From the NCBI GenBank assembly GCA_013812515.1, contig JACCTI010000005.1, positions 1 through 50,194 of the forward strand: a stretch of DNA of 50,194 bases. The letters run 5' to 3'. Positions 11,348 to 46,099 of this stretch are shown here, piece by piece. Source of the DNA: Chthoniobacterales bacterium (lineage in GTDB: Bacteria > Verrucomicrobiota > Verrucomicrobiia > Chthoniobacterales > UBA10450). Positions within the stretch are counted from its first letter, which is position 1. The number at the start of each line of letters is the position of its first letter. Under the pieces are notes generated by a model, which made no database searches, was not told the DNA's origin, and saw nothing but the letters and a program-made list of their open reading frames with translations. The translations under genes were made by a program, and so were the position numbers.

Positions 11348-11442
11348 GTTGTAGCCGGGGGCGATGACCCCGCCTGGCCCCAAGGCAGTATTCTCTCCGG
11401 TCGGCTGTCTCTCGCCGCCGGGGTCACCGCCCCCGGTTACAA
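11348..11442. repeat. REPIN-like inverted pair of GTAG-headed palindromic repeats (family A)
   Basis: GTTGTAGCCGGGGGCGATGACCCCGCC (11348-11374) and its near reverse complement GGGGTCACCGCCCCCGGTTACAA (11420-11442). Lies between the convergent SRPBCC and polX genes. The right arm overlaps the polX stop codon. Confidence 0.6.
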
Positions 11443-14187: not shown

Positions 14188-16416
14188 GTGAAACCGAATT
14201 TCGCTCGCGTCATTATCGATCGCGCGATTCATCGCGAGCTCGATTACGCCATTCCGCACGAGTTCGCGGGCCGGATCGACGTCGGATGGCGCGTGCGCGT
14301 GCCGTTTCGCGAGAAAGCCGCGCTTGCGACAGTTATTGCCATTCTGGCGGAAACCGACGCATCCGGCATTCGGCCGATTGAGGCGGTCGTCGGCGACGGC
14401 GCGGCTTTAAGTCCCAAGCTGCTCGAACTCGCGCGATGGATGAGCGCATATTACTGCTGTTCGATCGAGACGGTAATGCGGAGCCTGCTGCCGCAGGTGA
14501 TTCGGCGCGCGGAAGTGAGCTGGAAGAAGCAGCTCTTCGTTCATCGCATGCGAGAGGTGCCGCCGGACGCGGCAGAGAAGCTGCGGAAGCGCGCGCCGCG
14601 GCAAGCCGAGTTGCTGGACGCGGTCAGCCAACTCACTGCGCCGATCGCGGCGGCCGATCTTCTGCGGCAAACGTCGCTCGATAACCAGACGCTCCGTGCG
14701 CTCGCCAGACGTGGATATGTTGAACTGCGCGCAGCGGCGATGCCACGCGATCCGCACGCCGACGAGCAGTTCGTTGCCACCACCAACCTGTGCTTGAACG
14801 CCGAACAGTCTGCCGCGCTAACGGCGATCGAGCAGTCGTTAGGCAATCCGTCCAATGCCCGACCGATCCTGCTTCATGGCGTGACTGGCAGTGGCAAGAC
14901 AGAGATCTACTTGCAGGCGATTCGTTCCGCGCTGGCCCGAGGCGGGACGGCCATCGTGCTCGTGCCGGAAATCTCGCTCACGCCCCAAACCGTGGAGCGC
15001 TTTAAGAGCCGTTTCGCGGAGGGGGCCGACATGGTTGCCGTGCTGCACAGTCGGCTCTCGGAAGGCGAACGGCACGACGAATGGCATAAAATTCAGGCTG
15101 GCCGTGCGCGCATCGTGATCGGCGCCAGGAGCGCCATCTTCGCGCCGTTGGAAAATCTTGGGCTCATCGTGGTGGATGAAGAACACGAGACTTCCTACAA
15201 GCAGGAAGAAGCGCCGCGCTATCAGGCGCGGGATGTGGCCGTGGTGCGCGGCAAGCTGGAGAATTGCGTCGTTCTTCTCGGCACCGCGACGCCTTCGCTG
15301 GAAAGCTACTACAACGCCACCCGTGGCAAGTATCAGCTCCTGAAGCTAACCCTGCGCGTGGACGACAACCAGATGCCGTTAATCCGCATCGTCGATTTAA
15401 GAGAGGAGAAGCGGAAAGCGAAGTCCCTCACGATCATTGGCGAAAAATTGCACAGCGCGATCATTGCCCGACTGGAGAAACGCGAGCAGACCATCCTCTT
15501 CTTGAACCGCCGTGGCTTCTCCACCTCGTTGCTTTGCAGCGCCTGCGGCGAAGCGCGCGATTGCCCAAACTGCAGTGTGGCGCTCACGTTCCATCGTACG
15601 GCTTCGCGCTTGAGCTGCCATTTGTGCGGACACACTGCGGCGGTGCCGAAGAAGTGTCCGGCGTGCGGAGAAGACGCGCTTATTTATTCGGGCTTCGGCA
15701 CGGAGAAAGTCGAAGCTCACGTCCAGCAGCTCTTCCCGAAATCTGTCGTCCGCCGGATGGATGCGGATTCGATGACGCGCAAAGATGCATATCGCGAGAC
15801 GCTACGCGCCTTTCGCGCGGGCAAGATCGACCTTCTCGTCGGCACCCAGATGATCGCGAAAGGCCTGCACTTCCCGAACGTGACCCTGGTCGGAATCATC
15901 AACGCTGATCTCGCGTTGCACCTCCCGGATTTTCGCGCGGGTGAGCGCACCTTTCAGCTTCTGACGCAGGTCGCCGGTCGCGCTGGTCGCGGCGAAACTC
16001 CAGGCGAAGTGTTCGTGCAAACCTTCACGCCCTTCAGCCCGTCCATTCAGTTTGCGCGTCACCACGATTTCGTCGGCTACTTCGACCAGGAGCTGGAGTT
16101 TCGAGAACGCTGCGAGTTCCCGCCCTTCACCCATGCGGTGCTGATCACGGTGCGATCCGCGCACGAGGCGCGCGCCAGCTTCTCTGCCGAAACTCTCGCG
16201 CGCCGGCTGAAGGAAGCGCTCCCGGACGAGTTCATTCTCAGTCCACCTTCACCTGCGCCGTTGGAAAAACTGCAGGGGCAGCTCCGTTTTCACATCCTCA
16301 TTCGCGGCGAAGCGATCGTGCGCCTGAGCCGGCTCGTTCGCGAGACGCTCGACAAGCTACCTTTTCCCGAGGACGTGCTCGCCTCGGTGGATGTTGATCC
16401 ATATCAACTGCTCTAA
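14188..16416 (+). CDS. priA: primosomal replication restart helicase PriA
   Basis: 742 aa with GTG start. Walker A GVTGSGKTE, DEEH box, Cys-rich zinc insert (CSACGEARDCPNCSVALTFH...CHLCGH...CPACG), GTQMIAKGLHFPNV. Confidence 0.95.
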   Translation: MKPNFARVIIDRAIHRELDYAIPHEFAGRIDVGWRVRVPFREKAALATVIAILAETDASGIRPIEAVVGDGAALSPKLLELARWMSAYYCCSIETVMRSLLPQVIRRAEVSWKKQLFVHRMREVPPDAAEKLRKRAPRQAELLDAVSQLTAPIAAADLLRQTSLDNQTLRALARRGYVELRAAAMPRDPHADEQFVATTNLCLNAEQSAALTAIEQSLGNPSNARPILLHGVTGSGKTEIYLQAIRSALARGGTAIVLVPEISLTPQTVERFKSRFAEGADMVAVLHSRLSEGERHDEWHKIQAGRARIVIGARSAIFAPLENLGLIVVDEEHETSYKQEEAPRYQARDVAVVRGKLENCVVLLGTATPSLESYYNATRGKYQLLKLTLRVDDNQMPLIRIVDLREEKRKAKSLTIIGEKLHSAIIARLEKREQTILFLNRRGFSTSLLCSACGEARDCPNCSVALTFHRTASRLSCHLCGHTAAVPKKCPACGEDALIYSGFGTEKVEAHVQQLFPKSVVRRMDADSMTRKDAYRETLRAFRAGKIDLLVGTQMIAKGLHFPNVTLVGIINADLALHLPDFRAGERTFQLLTQVAGRAGRGETPGEVFVQTFTPFSPSIQFARHHDFVGYFDQELEFRERCEFPPFTHAVLITVRSAHEARASFSAETLARRLKEALPDEFILSPPSPAPLEKLQGQLRFHILIRGEAIVRLSRLVRETLDKLPFPEDVLASVDVDPYQLL
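16307..16416 (+). repeat. direct repeat copy 1: the last 36 codons plus stop of priA
   Basis: 110 nt, about 85% identical to 17985-18094. Nearly all differences are synonymous third-position changes. Confidence 0.85.
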
Positions 16417-16668
16417 GGGTGGCTTTTTCCCTTCGCCGGGTCCTAGCAGGCAGCCCAAACGGCCGCAAACTATGGCGTGAAGAAGGTTTGGCCGGGCTTC
16501 ATTTCCTGCGTGCTTGCGGCGGGGACGTAACTCAACAGTCGGCGAACTGTGTTGAGTCTCGCTTCTATCTCTGGACTAATGGCGGAAGTGGTAGCGGAGG
16601 TGTTGCAAAAATGTCTTGATATTGCTCATGGCGCCGGTGCTCTATGCTCGTTGGGATACCCCCTTTTT

Positions 16669-17217
16669 ATGAAAAGATTGAAATTCTTTGCCGCAATTGC
16701 TGTCGTCCTCGCAGGATCCACCAGCGCGGTGAAAGCACATTTGGTAGACGCAGGCGGCCTCTTCTCGCCCCCAGGAAGTCAGTTATTAGATCCAGCTGTC
16801 AGAGCGGCCGCGCTGGAAAGTCAATTCCACACTGGCCCACTTACCTTCCTCGGGAGGTATGTTCATGACCGAACGGGCGCGGTGACATTCGTGCCTGGCG
16901 CGATCAGCGATCCATCCAAACTGAGCTTTACGCACACGGAATTCCTGACCGGTTTGCTGTCGTGGGACCTTGCCGGTACCGGCTTTCAAAACAAGTGGGG
17001 CGTCACGCTGTTTTCTGGTGACGACTATGCATTTAATGAAGCCTACCGAGTCACCCGCGACGAGTTCCTTAACTCGCTGGGCCCGCAGCTGATGTTCGGA
17101 ACGCCGATAGATATTTTTGGCACCGCCAGTGGGGTTCCCGAGGCGGGGTCCACCGCGCTGCTTCTCGGTATTACAGGCGTGGGTTTCGGCCTATTGCGTC
17201 GTTTCCGAGCGCACTGA
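16669..17217 (+). CDS. secreted protein with VPDSG-CTERM-type (PEP-CTERM-like) C-terminal sorting signal
   Basis: Signal peptide MKRLKFFAAIAVVLAGSTSAVKA. C-terminus VPEAGSTALLLGITGVGFGLLRRFRAH (motif, TM helix, basic tail). Confidence 0.75.
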   Translation: MKRLKFFAAIAVVLAGSTSAVKAHLVDAGGLFSPPGSQLLDPAVRAAALESQFHTGPLTFLGRYVHDRTGAVTFVPGAISDPSKLSFTHTEFLTGLLSWDLAGTGFQNKWGVTLFSGDDYAFNEAYRVTRDEFLNSLGPQLMFGTPIDIFGTASGVPEAGSTALLLGITGVGFGLLRRFRAH

Positions 17218-17382
17218 TCTACTCGCGAATGCCCGCGCATGCAAGGCCTACGTTTCCGATTGGTCTGTGCCTCGCTGATGTGAGGCTAAATCCGCTGGAG
17301 GAACTGGTAGCGGAGGTGTCGATGTCTTGACAGTTGCTAGGCTGTCGCCGGCGGTTCTATGCTTCTCAAGCGTCTCAATCTT

Positions 17383-17921
17383 ATGAAAACATTAAAATTT
17401 GTCTGCCCAATGGTTGTCGCCTTCGCAGGACTTACAAGTTCGGTGAACGCGGATCGATATTTGCGGGGCAAATATTCCCTGGGATCCAGCTGACCAAGCG
17501 GCGGGTGCTGGAGGAGCAGTTCCACACTGGTCCACTTACCTTCCTTGGTCTGTATGGTCATGACCCAGAAACGGGCGCTGTGATATTCCTGCCTGGCGCG
17601 ATCAGCGATCCAGCCAGACTGAGCTTTACGCCAACGGATCGCCTGACCGGCCTGGTATCTTGGGATCTCATCGGCACCGGTTTTCAAAATAGATTCGTCA
17701 CGGCGGACGTATTTGAGGACGACTTTGACGTTGTTAACGTCTTCCGCGTCACTCAGGACGAGTTTCTTAACTCGCGCGGCGCAGCCGCCGTCCGGAATCG
17801 ATGGAGTGCTGATCTACTTTTCGGGACCCCCAGCAGAGTGCCCGACACAGGGTCTACGGCGGTGCTGCTCGGTAGCACACTCGTTGGTTTCGGGCTAATG
17901 CACCGTTTCCTCGCACACTGA
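17383..17921 (+). pseudogene. decayed tandem paralogue of the VPDSG-CTERM protein (at least two frame changes between signal peptide and mature domain)
   Basis: The signal peptide MKTLKFVCPMVVAFAGLTSSVNA is in frame 1 and stops at 17491. A DPA remnant (17483) is in frame 2. The mature domain (EEQFHTGPLTFLG...RVPDTGSTAVLLGSTLVGFGLMHRFLAH) is in frame 3. Confidence 0.65.
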
Positions 17922-17984
17922 CTTCCCGCTTCCGGCGGGCGATGCCGCTTGAATCATGCCGCGCTATGGGCTGTGTCGGACGAC

Positions 17985-18094
17985 GCGAAGCGATCGTGCG
18001 CCTGAGCCGACTCGTTCGCGAGACACTCGACAAGCTACCGCTGCCCGAAGACGTGCTCGCATCTGTTGATGTGGACCCTTACCAGCTCTTGTAG
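17985..18094 (+). pseudogene. orphan copy of the priA 3' end (direct repeat copy 2)
   Basis: Encodes EAIVRLSRLVRETLDKLPLPEDVLASVDVDPYQLL*. This differs from the PriA C-terminus by one residue (F to L) despite about 15 nucleotide differences. Confidence 0.8.
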
Positions 18095-33564: not shown

Positions 33565-33674
33565 GTTGTAGCCGGGGGCGTTGACCCCCGGCGGCGCGGA
33601 CGCTGCTACTTCAACGGTCTGCGGGCGCGCGGACTGCCGATTCCCGCAAAGTCGGGTCAGCGCCCCGCTACAAC
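33565..33674. repeat. REPIN-like inverted pair, family A (GTAG-headed palindromes)
   Basis: GTTGTAGCCGGGGGCGTTGACCCCCGGC (33565-33592) and the inverted GGGTCAGCGCCCCGCTACAAC (33654-33674), inside a 450-bp non-coding gap. Confidence 0.55.
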
Positions 33675-36346: not shown

Positions 36347-36373
36347 GTTTAGCCGGGGGCGTTGACCCCGGGG
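36347..36373 (+). repeat. single family A palindromic repeat
   Basis: GTTTAGCCGGGGGCGTTGACCCCGGGG, between the convergent small ORF and thiG. The stem is CCGGGG/CCCCGG. Confidence 0.5.
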
Positions 36374-37227: not shown

Positions 37228-37300
37228 TTTAACAGCCTTCGAGCCGGGCTAAACCCGGAATTTGTTGTTCACTCTCCCCCTGCCGGTAATCTCCTCCCGC

Positions 37301-38209
37301 ATGACTGAGCTGGGATTGTTTCCGTCAGACGGGGGCGCGGTGAAAGCGTCTCCCGTTTCGGGAAAAAACCGCACGGAATTCCAACTGCATAACGAAGACT
37401 GCATCGCCGGAATGGCGCGTCTTGCGGACGATTCCGTCGAATTGGTGGTTACCTCGCCGCCTTACAATCTCGGACTTCGCTACGGGAAATACCGGGATAA
37501 GGAGGAGCGCCCGGAATACCTGCTGTGGTGCGCGGAATGGGCGGCGCAAATTCGCCGGGTTCTGAAGCCGCTCGGTTCTTTTTTCCTAAACGTCGGCGCG
37601 TCGCCGAAGAATCCATTCCTGCCGCATGAAATCGTGCTTGGGCTGCGCGCGACGTTCGTGTTGCAAAACACGATCCACTGGATCAAAGCCATTACGATCG
37701 ACGAAAACGAGGAGGCGCCATGGTCGCGGGGCCATTTCAAACCCATCAACTCACCGCGTTACCTCAACGATTGCCACGAGTACGTTTTTCATCTCACACC
37801 CTCGGGCGCGACGGCGGTGGATCGCCTCGCGCTTGGCGTGCCGTATCAGGACAAGAGCAACATCGCGCGTTGGAGTCACACCGGCGGAAGCGATCTGCGT
37901 TGCCGCGGCAACACCTGGTTCGTGCCTTACAAGACGATCATGAGCCGCAACAAAGAACGGCCGCATCCCGCGACGTTCCCGGTCGAGCTGGCGGTGAATT
38001 GCATTAAGCTGCATGGCGTCAGCCGCGCGCAGACGATGCTCGATCCTTTTCTTGGGATCGGGAACTCCGCCCTGGCTGCTCAACAATGCGGCGTGGCGAA
38101 ATTCATCGGCTTCGAAATTGACGATCAGTACTTGGCCGAGGGGAAACGGCGGATAGGAGCACATGCAGCCTCGCTTGTGCCGCCAGCGGGCGTCTCGCCT
38201 GCTGGTTGA
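37301..38209 (+). CDS. beta-class N4-cytosine/N6-adenine DNA methyltransferase (PF01555-type), no cognate nuclease nearby
   Basis: Catalytic motif IV VTSPPY precedes the C-terminal SAM motif I DPFLGIGNSALAAQQCG. HPATFPVEL is also present. Confidence 0.85.
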   Translation: MTELGLFPSDGGAVKASPVSGKNRTEFQLHNEDCIAGMARLADDSVELVVTSPPYNLGLRYGKYRDKEERPEYLLWCAEWAAQIRRVLKPLGSFFLNVGASPKNPFLPHEIVLGLRATFVLQNTIHWIKAITIDENEEAPWSRGHFKPINSPRYLNDCHEYVFHLTPSGATAVDRLALGVPYQDKSNIARWSHTGGSDLRCRGNTWFVPYKTIMSRNKERPHPATFPVELAVNCIKLHGVSRAQTMLDPFLGIGNSALAAQQCGVAKFIGFEIDDQYLAEGKRRIGAHAASLVPPAGVSPAG

Positions 38210-38231
38210 GGAGACAGGCGAGACGCCTGTC
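38189..38231. repeat. palindromic repeat with stem GACAGGC/GCCTGTC, related to the hairpins flanking the carB insert (different loop)
   Basis: GGCGTCTCGCCTG (38189-38201) is the reverse complement of CAGGCGAGACGCC (38215-27). The local hairpin is GACAGGCG-AGA-CGCCTGTC (38213-38231). Spans the methyltransferase stop codon, between convergent genes. Confidence 0.5.
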
Positions 38232-38260
38232 GGCCGCACAGCAGGGACGGCCGTGCTCCG

Positions 38261-41917: not shown

Positions 41918-42089
41918 TAACGTTCAACGCCCAACGTTCAACGTCCAACGCTGGAATGGGCCGCAGACGCGGCCACGCGGCGGGGATGGGTTGGGAGCCC
42001 TGCAAACTGAAAAAGAGAACGAACGCCGAACGTCGAGGTGTGGAGGACACCCGGTTCGTCATCATACCTGGCATTCGACGTTCGGCGTT
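41918..42089. repeat. AACGT-rich repeat cluster: 14-nt tandem units (41918-41953) and a 15-nt perfect inverted repeat (42022-42036 / 42075-42089) spanning the carB stop
   Basis: TAACGTTCAACGCC CAACGTTCAACGTC CAACGCT. AACGCCGAACGTCGA and its exact reverse complement TCGACGTTCGGCGTT. A related CCAACGTCGAACGTCGAC occurs at 20254-20271. Confidence 0.5.
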
Positions 42090-45000
42090 TCTTTCTGTTC
42101 CCGTTCCATCGCGTGATATTCCTGGAGGCTCTTTACCGAAACACCATGGGACTGAAGCGCGCGAATGCCGGTCACGCTCGCGTGCGCTGCGCGCATTGTC
42201 GTGATAATCGGGATTTTGTTCGATCGCGCGCCGCTGCGCATTTTCAGCTCATCCTCGCGCGGGATTTTTCCGCTCGGCGTATTGATAATTAGCTGCACAT
42301 CACCGTTCGTGATGCGGTCGAGCACGTGCGGGCGACCTTCGCGCAATTTGAAGACGCGCGTCACGGGCACGCCGGCTGCGGCGAGGGTCGCAGCGGTTCC
42401 GCTGGTCGCGATGATGCCGAACCCGAGAGCGGTGAAGTCGCGCGCCAGGGGAACGACCCGCGCTTTGTCGGCGTCTTTCACGCTGATGAAGATGTTGCCG
42501 GATTTTGGCAGCGGAGGCGGCGCAGCCATCTGTGCTTTGGCGTAGGCGCGGCCCAGATCGACATCGATTCCCATTACTTCGCCGGTCGACTTCATTTCGG
42601 GACCGAGAGCTGTATCGCTGCCTTGATACCGAAGGAACGGGAACACCGGCGCTTTGACCGAGAAGTGTTTCGGAACGACTTCCTTCGTAAAGCCGAGTTC
42701 CGATAGCGTCTTCCCCGCCATCACTTTCGCGGCCAGCTTCGCGAGCGGCACCCCGATTGCCTTGCTTACGAATGGGGCCGTGCGGGACGCGCGCGGATTC
42801 ACCTCCAACACGTAGACGTCTTCGTCTTTCACGGCGAACTGCACATTCATCAAGCCGCGAACCTCCAGCTCCCGGGCCATCGCTTTGGTCGCAGCCGAAA
42901 TCTCGTCCAGGACGTGTCGCGACAATGAAAACGTAGGGATCGCACAAGCGCTGTCGCCGCTATGAATTCCGGCGAGTTGCACGTGTTCCATGATCGCGCC
43001 GAGCACCGCGATTTCACCATCCGCGATGCAGTCGACATCCACTTCAATGGCATCCTCGAGGAAGCGATCCACCAGCACTGGCCGATCTGCGCTGACCTCG
43101 ACTGCGTTCTCCATGTAACGGCGGAGATCGTGGTCGTTGTAGATCAGTTCCATCGCGCGTCCGCCCAGAACGAACGACGGCCTAACGAGCACCGGATACC
43201 CAATCCGATCCGCGATCGCGAGGGCTTCTTCCGCGTCGAGAGCAGAGCCGCTCGGCGTCTGCCGAAGCCCGAGCTTGTCCAGCATCGCGGCGAAGAGTCT
43301 GCGGTCTTCAGCTTTCTCGATACTTTCGGGCTGGGTTCCGACGATCGGCACATTCGCGGCCCGCAGGCCGGCCGCCAGGTTAAGTGGCGTTTGTCCGCCG
43401 AATTGCACGATCACGCCTTCCGGCTGCTCCTGATCGTAAATGTTCAGGACGTCTTCCAGCGTGAGTGGCTCGAAGTAGAGTTTGTCGCTTGTGTCGTAAT
43501 CGGTCGAGACCGTCTCGGGATTCGAATTGACCATGATGGTCTCGAACCCGAGCTCGCGCAGCGCGAAGGCCGCGTGCACGCAGCAGTAATCGAACTCGAT
43601 GCCTTGCCCGATGCGATTGGGTCCGCCGCCTAGAATCATGATCTTGCGACGATCCGTCCGGCGCATCTCGTTCTCGCTGCCGTAGGTGGAGTAGTAGTAT
43701 GGCGTGTAGGCCTCGAACTCTGCGGCGCAGGTGTCGACGAGGCGGTAAGTGGGGAGGACGCCGAGATCTTTTCGTAACGCGCGCACCTGCTCGTCGCTCA
43801 TGTTCCATGCGACAGCGAGTTGGCGATCGGAGAAACCGAGCTTCTTCGCGCGGCGAATGGTTTGGAGGTCAGGCTTCCAGCCTGACTCGGCCAGCGGGCT
43901 TCCAGCCTGCCGGCTCAGCTCAGCGCCATCCCGCACCGCCCCCCGCGATTCTAAAACAAATTCGCCCGCCTTTAGACCAGCTTTCACCGGGTTTCTTGCG
44001 ACATACTCACGGCAGACCGCGAGGTGCGAAGCATCTCGTACGATCGTGTCGAAGCTCTCTTCCATCCAAAACGTGCCGGCCTGATGGAGGACGCGATTGA
44101 TCTCATTAGCCGAGTACGATTTCCAGGAATGTAGAATATCCGAAAGGGCGCTCGCGCCGAGAGGCTTCGCGATCGCATGGACGTGATTCGGCATCACGAC
44201 GAAGGAATCCAGGAGATAACGTTCCGAGTCGAAGTGCCGCAGCGCGTTCGCGACGATCCTCGCAGCGCCGGGCTCTCGCAGCAGACAAGAGCCATGACCT
44301 TGGTCGAGCCATTCTTCGCGGCTTTCCTCGCAAAGCCGAATGTAAGCTCTGGTGGCCTGCCAGTCCCACGGAGGAGGATGGTGCTGAAGCCACTGTTCGC
44401 GTTCTTCCCGCCATCGCTGGAGGACGTTCGCCGCGACGGAATCGTTGAGCCGGAAAGTGACGAAATAGGTCGCTCCCTGCTGTTCCCAATGAGGAAGATT
44501 ACGGCGCGTTTGCTTGATTTCGCCGTGCGGATTGAACGGTTGGAAACAACAGGCTGGAAGCCTGTCGCCCGAGTCAGGCTGGAAGCCTGACTTCCGTTCC
44601 GGCGAGATGTCCGCCGGCTGGACAGGCGCATCGGCAGTGCTCCGCGCTTTAGCGTCGGCAGTCGCGACACTCCGCAGCCTCTCCGCTTCCTCAACGATCT
44701 GCCGAATGTTGTGCAGGAACCAGCGGTCGATCTTCGTCGCATCGAACACCTCGTCGATCGACATGCCGTCCTGAAAAGCCTGCGCGACATGGAAGATGCG
44801 CTCGGCATTTGGAACGGTGAGCCTGACCCGCAGTGTCTCGGGGTCAACGCGCTTTTCATTCCCGTCGCCGCACAAGCCAAAGCGTTTGATTTCGAGCGAA
44901 CGCAGCGCTTTTTGCAGGGCCTCCTTGAAGGTGCGCCCAATCGCCATCGCTTCGCCCACGCTTTTCATCTGCGTCGTCAGCGTAGCGTCGGCTTGCGGGA

Positions 45001-46099
45001 ATTTTTCGAAGGTGAAACGCGGCACTTTCACCACGCAGTAGTCAATCGTCGGCTCGAAGCTCGCCGGCGTTTCGCGCGTGATGTCGTTGCGGATCTCATC
45101 CAGCGTGTAGCCGACCGCCAGCTTCGCGGCGATTTTCGCAATCGGAAATCCAGTCGCTTTTGACGCCAGTGCCGATGATCGCGAGACGCGCGGGTTCATT
45201 TCGATGACTACCATCCGGCCATTCTCCGGGTTCACGGCAAACTGGATGTTTGACCCGCCGGTCTCGACGCCGATCTCACGGATCACCGCGAACGACGCGT
45301 CCCGCATGAGCTGAAACTCGCGATCGGAGAGCGTCTGCGTCGGCGCGACCGTGATCGAGTCGCCGGTGTGCACGCCCATCGGATCGAGGTTCTCGATCGA
45401 GCAAACGACCACGCAATTGTCGGCGCAGTCGCGCATCACCTCCATTTCGAATTCCTTCCAACCGACGAGCGATTCTTCGATCAACACTTCATCGACCGGT
45501 GACAGGTTCAGGCCACGCGCGACGATCTCATCGAGCTCCTCACGGTTGTAAGCGATGCCACCGCCGGAGCCACCGAGGGTAAACGCCGGCCGAATGATGA
45601 GGGGAAAAGCGCCGATCTCATCGGCGATGCGACTCGCATCCTGCAAGGAATGGGCGATCCCGGAACGGGGAACATCGAGCCCGATCCGCAGCATCGCTTC
45701 CTTGAAGAGGTGGCGATCTTCGCCCTTTGCGATCGCCTGCGCGTTCGCGCCGATCAACTTCACGCCCTGCCGGCTGAGCGCGCCGTTGCGATTCAATTCC
45801 ATGGCGGCGTTGAGCGCGGTTTGTCCGCCCATCGTGGGCAGGATCGCATCCGGCTTTTCGCGTTCCAGAATCGCCTCGATCACCTCTGGCGTGATCGGTT
45901 CGATGTAGGTGCGATCCGCGAACTCCGGATCGGTCATGATCGTGGCCGGATTCGAGTTTACGAGCACGACCTCGTAGCCTTCTTCCTTGAGCGCTTTGCA
46001 CGCTTGCACGCCGGAATAATCGAACTCGCAGCCCTGCCCAATGACGATGGGCCCGGAGCCAATCAGGAGGATTTTTCGAAGCTCGTTATTCCGCGGCAT
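42062..46099 (-). CDS. carB: carbamoyl-phosphate synthase large subunit carrying an in-frame ~250-aa insertion (1345 aa in total)
   Basis: Both ATP-grasp halves ([21 protein letters not shown]...; [23 protein letters not shown]...) and the C-terminal MGS-like domain are intact and collinear with E. coli CarB. The exception is the insert between ...EEAERLRSV and [14 protein letters not shown]. Confidence 0.9.
43868..44591 (-). mobile_element. REP-hairpin-flanked IS200-like Y1/HUH (RAYT-type) transposase module, inserted in frame within carB
   Basis: [20 protein letters not shown], the HUH motif [10 protein letters not shown] (His codons 44183-44185 and 44177-44179), and [13 protein letters not shown] (Tyr codon 44003-44005). 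An identical 19-nt hairpin GTCAGGC-TTCCA-GCCTGAC sits at 43868-43886, with its inverted copy at 44573-44591. Second hairpins lie at 43894-43910 and 44549-44565. Confidence 0.75.

Follow-up and report, generated by a model that had tools for sequence, protein, structure and literature searches.

Repetitive extragenic palindromes (REPs) and the REP-associated tyrosine transposases (RAYTs) are among the commonest repeats of bacterial genomes, and it remains to be explained how RAYTs last as single genes that are inherited vertically. The REP/RAYT system is reportedly the subject of studies by Nunvar in 2010 and by Ton-Hoang in 2012. Here we describe a transposase of this kind that lies in frame inside carB, the gene for the large subunit of carbamoyl-phosphate synthase, in a stretch of 50,194 nucleotides (nt) from a Chthoniobacterales bacterium of the Verrucomicrobiota (assembly GCA_013812515.1, contig JACCTI010000005.1). 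This whole stretch is called the window below.

The unit of REPs and their transposase TnpA_REP (RAYT), the REPtron, has been described together with the cleavage and strand transfer that it carries out in vitro on single-stranded DNA (ssDNA) containing the REP (Corneloup 2021, PMC8266576). The TnpA_REP proteins have been classified in the most complete survey of them, from which unexpectedly long proteins were dropped as gene fusions or annotation errors (Quentin 2018, PMC6006769). The insert in carB is like a REPtron in that its transposase, here called RayT, has the IS200-like HUH-Y1 fold, that it is flanked by inverted REPs, that its REP occurs dispersed, and that RayT subclades match REP types. 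It differs in that known RAYTs are free-standing, intergenic genes with start and stop codons of their own, whereas the unit in the window is an in-frame segment of an essential enzyme and its REP lacks the GTAG foot.

In-frame insertions into open reading frames (ORFs) have been reported for the palindromic elements (RPEs) of Rickettsia and for GTAG/CGTC REPs, including those of Opitutus terrae (Di Nocera 2013, PMC3733652). In these cases, as in the solo REPs reported below, palindromes are translated as extra loop segments of functional proteins, and the survivors are in frame. Those insertions measure a mere 20-150 nt and derive from non-coding sequence, whereas the carB insert contains the whole transposase by which such palindromes are presumably mobilised. 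REPs have also been found inserted in frame into tnpA_REP genes of subclass 2.4 (Quentin 2018, PMC6006769). There too a REP is nested in frame with a coding gene that belongs to its own system, but the nesting is reversed in the carB case, where REP and transposase together lie inside a host gene.

With the IS200/IS605 elements (TnpA Y1; IS608, ISDra2) the insert shares the catalytic fold and the use of ssDNA hairpin ends as recognition elements. The hairpins of those elements are in direct orientation without terminal inverted repeat, the elements are multi-copy and they often carry tnpB, whereas the carB cassette and its relatives have no second gene. An intein with a homing endonuclease is likewise a selfish nuclease element that occupies, in frame, conserved sites within essential and highly conserved genes, with presence/absence polymorphism and horizontal replacement. 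Unlike an intein, the carB insert has neither a Hint domain nor splice residues and is presumably not removed, and its nuclease is an HUH enzyme for ssDNA rather than a LAGLIDADG or HNH enzyme. As far as lifestyle is concerned, the closest analogy is such an intein, minus the splicing.

None of the papers returned by full-text literature searches mentions a RAYT that lies within the ORF of a host gene. An earlier note on this DNA, made from the letters alone, knew of no described precedent for the arrangement. For the embedded RAYT this is consistent with the searches, and it has to be restricted with respect to in-frame REP and RPE insertions without transposase, which are known (PMC3733652).

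Results

A complete REPtron in frame in carB

The insert is a complete REPtron, since a RayT core of the TnpA_REP type, an HUH-Y1 protein, stands between two inverted REP doublets. Its coordinates and those of its parts are collected in Table 1. An ORF check confirms that the carB frame is open over its whole length, as had been claimed. The enzyme around the insert has the complete Pfam domain set of a carbamoyl-phosphate synthase large subunit, with two copies each of CPSase_L_D1 and CPSase_L_D2, one CPSase_L_D3 and one MGS domain, i.e., two preATP-grasp/ATP-grasp halves, the oligomerisation domain and the MGS-like allosteric domain. When the insert is taken out, the remaining protein is collinear with Escherichia coli CarB (1CE8/1BXR) across the junction. 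The match to CPSase_L_D3 (PF02787), which extends over amino acids (aa) 426-479 and profile positions 2-55 of 80, breaks off at aa 479, and the insertion loop in the oligomerisation domain corresponds to about residues 480-486 of E. coli CarB.

Relatives that are free of the insert have a linker of 11 residues at this site (IVEEQGKLAQV/DLRRAKKL). The insert was first estimated, from E. coli CarB, as 266 residues where about a dozen would be expected, and the comparison with orthologues gives 266 codons against the 11-residue linker. The residues at its junctions are V478/A479 and D744/L745. From REP arm to REP arm the element measures 732 nt, or 244 codons, and the low-complexity linker of the insert is absent or different in the relatives P0121/L083, P0151 and L090.

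No stop codon occurs anywhere in the insert, and from CarB aa 451 up to the LPHW motif of the transposase the frame contains neither ATG nor GTG nor TTG. Neither a sigma-70-like promoter in the insert region nor a second gene in the insert was found, and tnpB is absent from it. The codon check of the insert and of the CarB sequence upstream of it bears out the claim of the earlier note that the transposase lacks both a start and a stop codon of its own. Because a start codon, a stop codon and a detectable promoter are all absent, RayT would share its transcription and translation with carB and form a guest domain within a CarB protein of about 148 kDa, and we infer that it is produced solely as part of this protein. 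The host gene had been held to be intact, which agrees with the full Pfam set and with a ratio of nonsynonymous to synonymous substitution rates (dN/dS) of 0.01-0.06 for the carB flanks of insert-bearing relatives, in which the host gene is thus under strong purifying selection. The insert-bearing CarB is presumably enzymatically competent.

Several other descriptions of the insert were considered and rejected. It is not an intein, since Pfam finds no Hint domain in the whole protein and the two junctions lack splice residues. It is not a group I or group II intron or an IStron, since there is no Rfam match in the window at gathering score or in positions 43600-44900 at E<=1. It is not an IS200/IS605 element, since its arms are inverted rather than direct and a second gene is missing. 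A promoter or start codon that would belong to RayT itself was looked for, and neither was found.

Family and predicted structure of the transposase

The Y1_Tnp family (PF01797) matches the insert alone with 27.4 bits against a cut-off of 23, at aa 628-702. In a PDB search with a profile built from the core and related sequences, the best match is E. coli TnpA_REP (4ER8; E 1.3e-4), a RAYT bound to a REP hairpin, followed by the TnpA proteins of ISDra2 and IS608. The same order is obtained from structure. AlphaFold2 (AF2) models the window RayT core with a predicted local distance difference test score (pLDDT) of 85.8 and a predicted template modelling score (pTM) of 0.79, and Foldseek with this model gives 4ER8 as top match (E 2.6e-6; TM-score 0.46-0.53), with ISDra2 and IS608 TnpA after it. 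In an alignment of 176 homologues, the motifs WLDxGxGxC, MPNHVH, SWKS, W.ESFD.IVRD and Y..NP form invariant columns, and all of them are present in the window copy. The assignment to the HUH/Y1, RAYT-like transposases that was made by eye, with its HUH motif and candidate catalytic tyrosine, is therefore upheld by the Pfam search that had been proposed as its check, by both comparisons with 4ER8 and by the invariant columns.

In an AF2 model of CarB aa 396-840, both the D3 helices of the oligomerisation domain and RayT are predicted with confidence, while the REP-coded stretches have pLDDT below 50. Such values are found at aa 732-740, coded by the distal REP, and in the linker region over aa 488-512; aa 479-485, alongside the D3 helices, still score high. 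The model fits a RayT that is a guest domain on flexible linkers.

The REP hairpins

The two arms of the element form an inverted repeat of 46 nt (43864-43909 and 44550-44595) with 89% complementarity, and each arm folds as ssDNA into two hairpins with z scores of -3.1 to -4.4 relative to shuffled sequence. The inverted REP doublets that had been noticed in the letters are thus real, and relatives have the same layout. The exact motif GTCAGGC-N5-GCCTGAC occurs in the window only as hairpins 1 and 1' of Table 1, so that the window holds no further copy of the carB-insert REP. With up to two mismatches there are 4 matches where 0.21 are expected, and none of 100 shuffled sequences reaches 4. The window REP reads CGGAAGTCAGGC..., without the conserved 5' GTAG/CGTC foot.

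The carB-insert hairpin is a true dispersed REP. In an exact-match scan of metagenomes the 19-mer was found in at least 120 contigs, in 111 of them without RayT or CarB nearby. Among the matches listed, all six that are adjacent to a RayT lie inside carB, and one more lies at the end of a carB contig. The dispersed copies are mostly situated outside long ORFs, with 23 of 129 in ORFs that continue for 100 aa or more to either side. One such solo copy, conserved in three contigs (L109, L122, L198), stands in frame inside an ORF of about 640 aa, which by sequence motif looks like a threonyl-tRNA synthetase.

Table 1. Positions in the window of carB, of its insert and of the parts of the insert
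Feature	Position	Strand	Remarks
carB ORF	42062..46099	minus	1345 aa, uninterrupted; encodes carbamoyl-phosphate synthase large subunit
Oligomerisation domain, N-terminal part	44666..44824	minus	aa 426-478; PF02787 match; pLDDT 84-95
In-frame insert	43868..44665	minus	266 codons, aa 479-744; ends set by comparison with relatives, the empty-site allele L205 among them
Low-complexity linker	44594..44665	minus	aa 479-502; length and sequence vary among relatives
Gene-proximal REP doublet	44550..44595		hairpin 1 at 44573-44591 (GTCAGGCTGGAAGCCTGAC, + strand); hairpin 2 at 44549-44565
RayT / TnpA_REP-like HUH-Y1 core	43964..44539	minus	aa 521-712; PF01797, PDB profile search, AF2/Foldseek
HuH motif MPNHVH	44177..44194	minus	aa 636-641
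Catalytic tyrosine motif REYVARNP	43988..44011	minus	aa 697-704, Y699; aligned to YIYINP of 4ER8
Gene-distal REP doublet	43864..43909		hairpin 1' at 43868-43886 (GTCAGGCTTCCAGCCTGAC, + strand); hairpin 2' at 43894-43910
Oligomerisation domain, C-terminal remainder	43766..43867	minus	aa 745-778; CarB collinearity resumes here

Recurrence at the same carB site

The insert together with 150 aa of CarB on each side was used as query against a collection of 5.8 billion proteins. About 60 protein clusters combine CarB and Y1_Tnp at the identical site; they come from Chthoniobacterales, Candidatus Udaeobacter and metagenome-assembled genomes (MAGs) of other Verrucomicrobiota, and several of them carry the JGI name 'carbamoylphosphate synthase large subunit/REP element-mobilizing transposase RayT'. 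Because the table of this search covers proteins of less than 1000 aa, full-length genes were confirmed in DNA. Uninterrupted carB+RayT ORFs of 1325-1386 aa are found in the GTDB species representatives L003 (on a contig of 1.18 Mb), L008, L009 (Ca. Udaeobacter) and L036, and in L006 and L010 carB also contains RayT but is cut by the contig end. The spacing between the CarB anchors on the two sides is divisible by three in all 16 carB loci examined. The alignment of orthologues that had been proposed as a measure of lineage spread thus places the insert at the same site and in frame in carB of Chthoniobacterales and other Verrucomicrobiota: the carB-embedded RayT is a lineage-wide, multi-host phenomenon rather than a single event.

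The CarB proteins closest to that of the window belong to MAGs labelled Chthoniobacterales. The nearest RayT (L083/P0121) has 72% aa identity in the core, and no locus exceeds 64% in the scan of contigs from GTDB species representatives. In L083/P0121 hairpin 1 is identical to that of the window, while the stem of hairpin 2 is changed on both sides, ACAGGC..GCCTGT in one against GACGGGC..GCCCGTC in the other. Other relatives have hairpin stems that are different again and perfectly paired.

Two further loci were observed. In a Chthoniobacter sp. MAG (L007 614-1180, JANPHJ010000184.1) a RayT occupies a second carB site, at about aa 1004 of the window CarB, in the second ATP-grasp half. The predicted protein P0214 (907 aa) combines CarB domains, an MqnA domain (PF02621) and Y1_Tnp, and is probably an assembly chimera that arose through near-identical RayT cassettes in carB and mqnA of one organism.

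Turnover at the carB site

To describe the variation at this site, consider the states in which it is found. At least five REP types, distinguished by their translated hairpins and accompanied by matching RayT subclades, occupy it; examples are KSGFQPD…ESGWKPD, STGILPVG…TGKMPVP and LRNIDFQSVRP…AGRTGQRPMF. Another RayT family, with the motif RRLPHFER, is found at the same position. REP-only fillers occur as well: in the allele L084, whose CarB is among the closest to that of the window (flank segments 87-95% identical), RayT is missing and the site is filled by 162 nt that form other hairpins. P0183 has a REP doublet without RayT. There are also a solo degenerate REP (L206), a half-deleted RayT (P0146) and empty sites.

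The identity of CarB flanks and the identity of RayTs are only weakly correlated (Spearman 0.26), and in many pairs the flanks are 90-96% identical and the RayTs 52-61%. P0147 (type B) and P0123 (type A), the sole such pair checked for type, differ in REP type. The reverse is also observed: identity at third codon positions is higher in the cassette than in the carB flanks, with 81% against 56% for L181/L004 and 81% against 63% for L171/L201. In a neighbour-joining tree the carB-embedded RayTs form one large clade, inside which MqnA-embedded RayT and one Lactamase_B_2-embedded copy are nested. A single ancient insertion followed by purely vertical co-divergence is rejected by the low correlation, by the diverged RayTs on near-identical flanks and by the excess of third-position identity. 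Because the histories of cassette and host disagree, we conclude from these sequence comparisons that cassettes have probably been exchanged or replaced horizontally at the carB site.

Selection on the embedded RayT

For pairs that are unsaturated at synonymous sites, the dN/dS of the carB-embedded core is 0.08-0.17, compared with the lower values given above for the carB flanks. The HuH motif is intact in 70 of 71 carB-embedded copies and the tyrosine in 71 of 71, and free-standing relatives show the same rates. In the relatives, the RayT protein sequence is thereby shown to be under purifying selection, and the combination of low dN/dS and motif retention makes it unlike filler that is held open by selection on carB alone.

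Other host genes

The phenomenon extends beyond carB. Among the best 80 loci from GTDB species representatives, RayT lies inside a larger ORF in 44, when this is defined as a frame that stays open for over 100 aa on the upstream side of RayT or for over 60 aa on its downstream side, and most of these are open on both sides. Hosts in a single ORF, as identified by Pfam, are MqnA, ValRS, LeuRS, PriA, a DinG-like helicase, the alpha subunit of DNA polymerase III (DnaE), PdxA, adenosine deaminase, an ADH/GFO oxidoreductase, type I HsdR, and Eco57I- and MmeI-type enzymes. Further hosts, with Dtd, NUDIX, B12-binding and metallo-beta-lactamase folds or domains, come from the first search. Within each host family the insertion site is constant, across genera. 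A hidden Markov model search of 1.84 billion cluster representatives gave 2075 relatives at E<=1e-30, and among the best 150 of these 2075, 64 are proteins of 400-1523 aa with an internal RayT, with matches to 62 Pfam families. Inverted hairpin repeats flank embedded and free-standing members of the clade alike. One MAG, JACCZQ01 (Chthoniobacterales MGR_bin234), has embedded RayTs in both carB (L006) and valS (L015), with different flanking REP-coded peptides.

Two loci are described individually. In a Verrucomicrobiota MAG (L035 564-5063, JBEKRA010000176.1) RayT stands in frame in a DnaE ORF of 1500 aa, with the finger domain on one side of it and the HhH domain on the other. In a contig of ERZ1700618 (L002 3538-5101) the N-terminal ORF of mqnA stops in the left REP block, and RayT and the C-terminal part are in another frame; the flanks of this locus are direct repeats of about 110 nt, each with several hairpins, and in L005 the same host is fully in frame.

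Other repeats in the window

At 38186-38260, REP-like hairpins of a different type (e.g., GACAGGCGAGACGCCTGTC) are clustered between two convergent genes, and the genome therefore holds at least one REP family besides that of carB. The ORF upstream of this cluster (37262-38209, plus strand), DNA-methylase-like by eye, ends in the REP-coded peptide ...PPAGVSPAG. A third REP-like family is represented by the GTAG-footed palindrome GTAGCCGGGGGCGTTGACCCCCGG at 33567-33592, with a near copy at 36347-36373 and a weaker one at 11352-11374. Two or three direct repeats of 59-120 nt, with 81-86% identity and spacings of about 700 and 1680 nt, occur at 16307-18087 and look like tandem paralogous genes or domains.

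Discussion

The explanation that we regard as probable is that a REPtron lies in frame within a variable surface loop of CarB, that its transposase is made there as a guest domain, and that it is kept by the essentiality of the host. The REP-coded peptides (KSGFQPD... and ...ESGWKPD) would act as disordered linkers between guest and host. As CarB is indispensable, those insertions would survive that are a multiple of three in length, free of stops and compatible with folding, and the host would be unable to discard the element through the usual pseudogenising mutations. The embedded RayT would be catalytically active and mobilise dispersed REPs in trans on ssDNA; that it may act on single-stranded REP DNA is suggested by analogy with E. 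coli TnpA_REP, which does so in vitro. Cassettes would turn over through recombination in the conserved carB flanks, through REP-targeted insertion, or through both.

Several observations weigh against this explanation. The window REP lacks the canonical GTAG foot, while GTAG feet are present in several relatives of the clade and in two other REPs of the window. The tract of high identity in L181/L004 runs from the proximal REP to a point within RayT and does not extend to the distal REP, which suggests recombination rather than transposition of the whole unit, and the latter is as a mode of spread not supported by this one pair examined. The LPHW motif is changed in about 15% of the carB-embedded copies and some copies are truncated (P0146), so that not all copies are maintained. 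The evidence from dN/dS and turnover comes from relatives, as every pair that includes the window copy (at most 72% aa identity) is saturated at synonymous sites. Finally, L001, L002 and L004 show frame breaks that may reflect assembly errors or real decay. In L001 and L004, contigs of long-read style, the carB+RayT frame changes, twice in L001 and there once far from the insert; these changes are possibly assembly indel errors rather than decay. L001 and L002 were used as evidence neither way.

The alternatives differ in what they make of the same data. That RayT is made or released alone, by non-canonical initiation, by proteolysis in the REP-coded linkers or by removal of an intron- or intein-like kind, seems unlikely to us. 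The linkers are predicted to be disordered and are plausibly accessible to proteases, and the two arms could pair in the mRNA, but the frame offers no ATG, GTG or TTG from aa 451 to LPHW, the region shows no sigma-70-like promoter, and neither an intein/Hint domain by Pfam, nor intein-like junction residues, nor a match of the insert to any Rfam family of introns or ribozymes, with the limit relaxed to E<=1, has been found. It is distinctly unlikely that the insert is an inert passenger, a dead transposase that has stayed open merely since frame breaks would kill carB. Such selection would by itself account for stop-free inserts that are multiples of three, and motif changes, truncation and REP-only filler are indeed seen in some copies. 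A neutral filler is, however, expected to evolve with dN/dS near 1, far from the range observed for the embedded core; HuH and tyrosine are retained as in free-standing relatives, and the core is confidently foldable according to AF2.

The earlier note had offered two readings, a mobile element that persists in a tolerant linker by staying open, and a domain domesticated for CarB. The many unrelated hosts, the filled, REP-only and empty states of the site and the swaps between types fit the mobile element better than domestication for CarB function. In its full form, exaptation would mean that the HUH domain has been recruited for a property of CarB, such as regulation, localisation or nucleic-acid binding, and is no longer part of a REP/RAYT system. 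The long retention under purifying selection and the fixed position in the oligomerisation domain speak for it, and we still judge it very improbable: members of this RayT clade are found within dozens of host proteins that are unrelated to each other, the inverted REP flanks persist and co-vary, the REP is dispersed elsewhere, close carB alleles have no RayT or one of another type, and the residues that are conserved are those of the nuclease. To an assembly or annotation artefact, in which a RayT locus has been chimerically joined into carB, we give next to no weight. REP and RayT repeats can cause chimeric assemblies, as the mixture of CarB, MqnA and RayT domains in P0214 and the frameshifts in some long-read loci illustrate, but the identical in-frame architecture is found in 16 independent assemblies from varied projects and technologies, contigs of more than 1 Mb included, and the divergence between these assemblies is consistent with real evolution.

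The guest-domain explanation for carB can be generalised to the whole RayT clade, though this step is tentative and we put its chances somewhat short of even. The clade may then consist of intein-like guest domains without splicing, which occupy fixed permissive sites in essential or highly conserved genes (carB, leuS, valS, dnaE, priA, mqnA, pdxA and those of restriction-modification enzymes), are expressed only, and are active, within the host protein, spread or are replaced horizontally at one and the same site in a homing-like manner, seed REPs and have the essentiality of the host as their insurance.

A RAYT inside an indispensable enzyme would provide a concrete mechanism of persistence, by which ordinary inactivating mutations cannot remove the element and by which its expression is linked to that of a housekeeping gene. 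Bacteria would also have in it a counterpart of the inteins that does without protein splicing. CarB, LeuRS, ValRS, DnaE and PriA have defined loops at which a guest domain of about 25 kDa is accepted, and HUH domains appear to be functional as internal fusions, both of which are of relevance for HUH-tag technology. Surveys that discard transposases as 'too long', and gene callers that split such genes, miss a class that makes up about 40% of the best 150 cluster representatives of the clade. Embedded RayTs recur in many soil Verrucomicrobia and are prominent in Chthoniobacterales and Udaeobacter.

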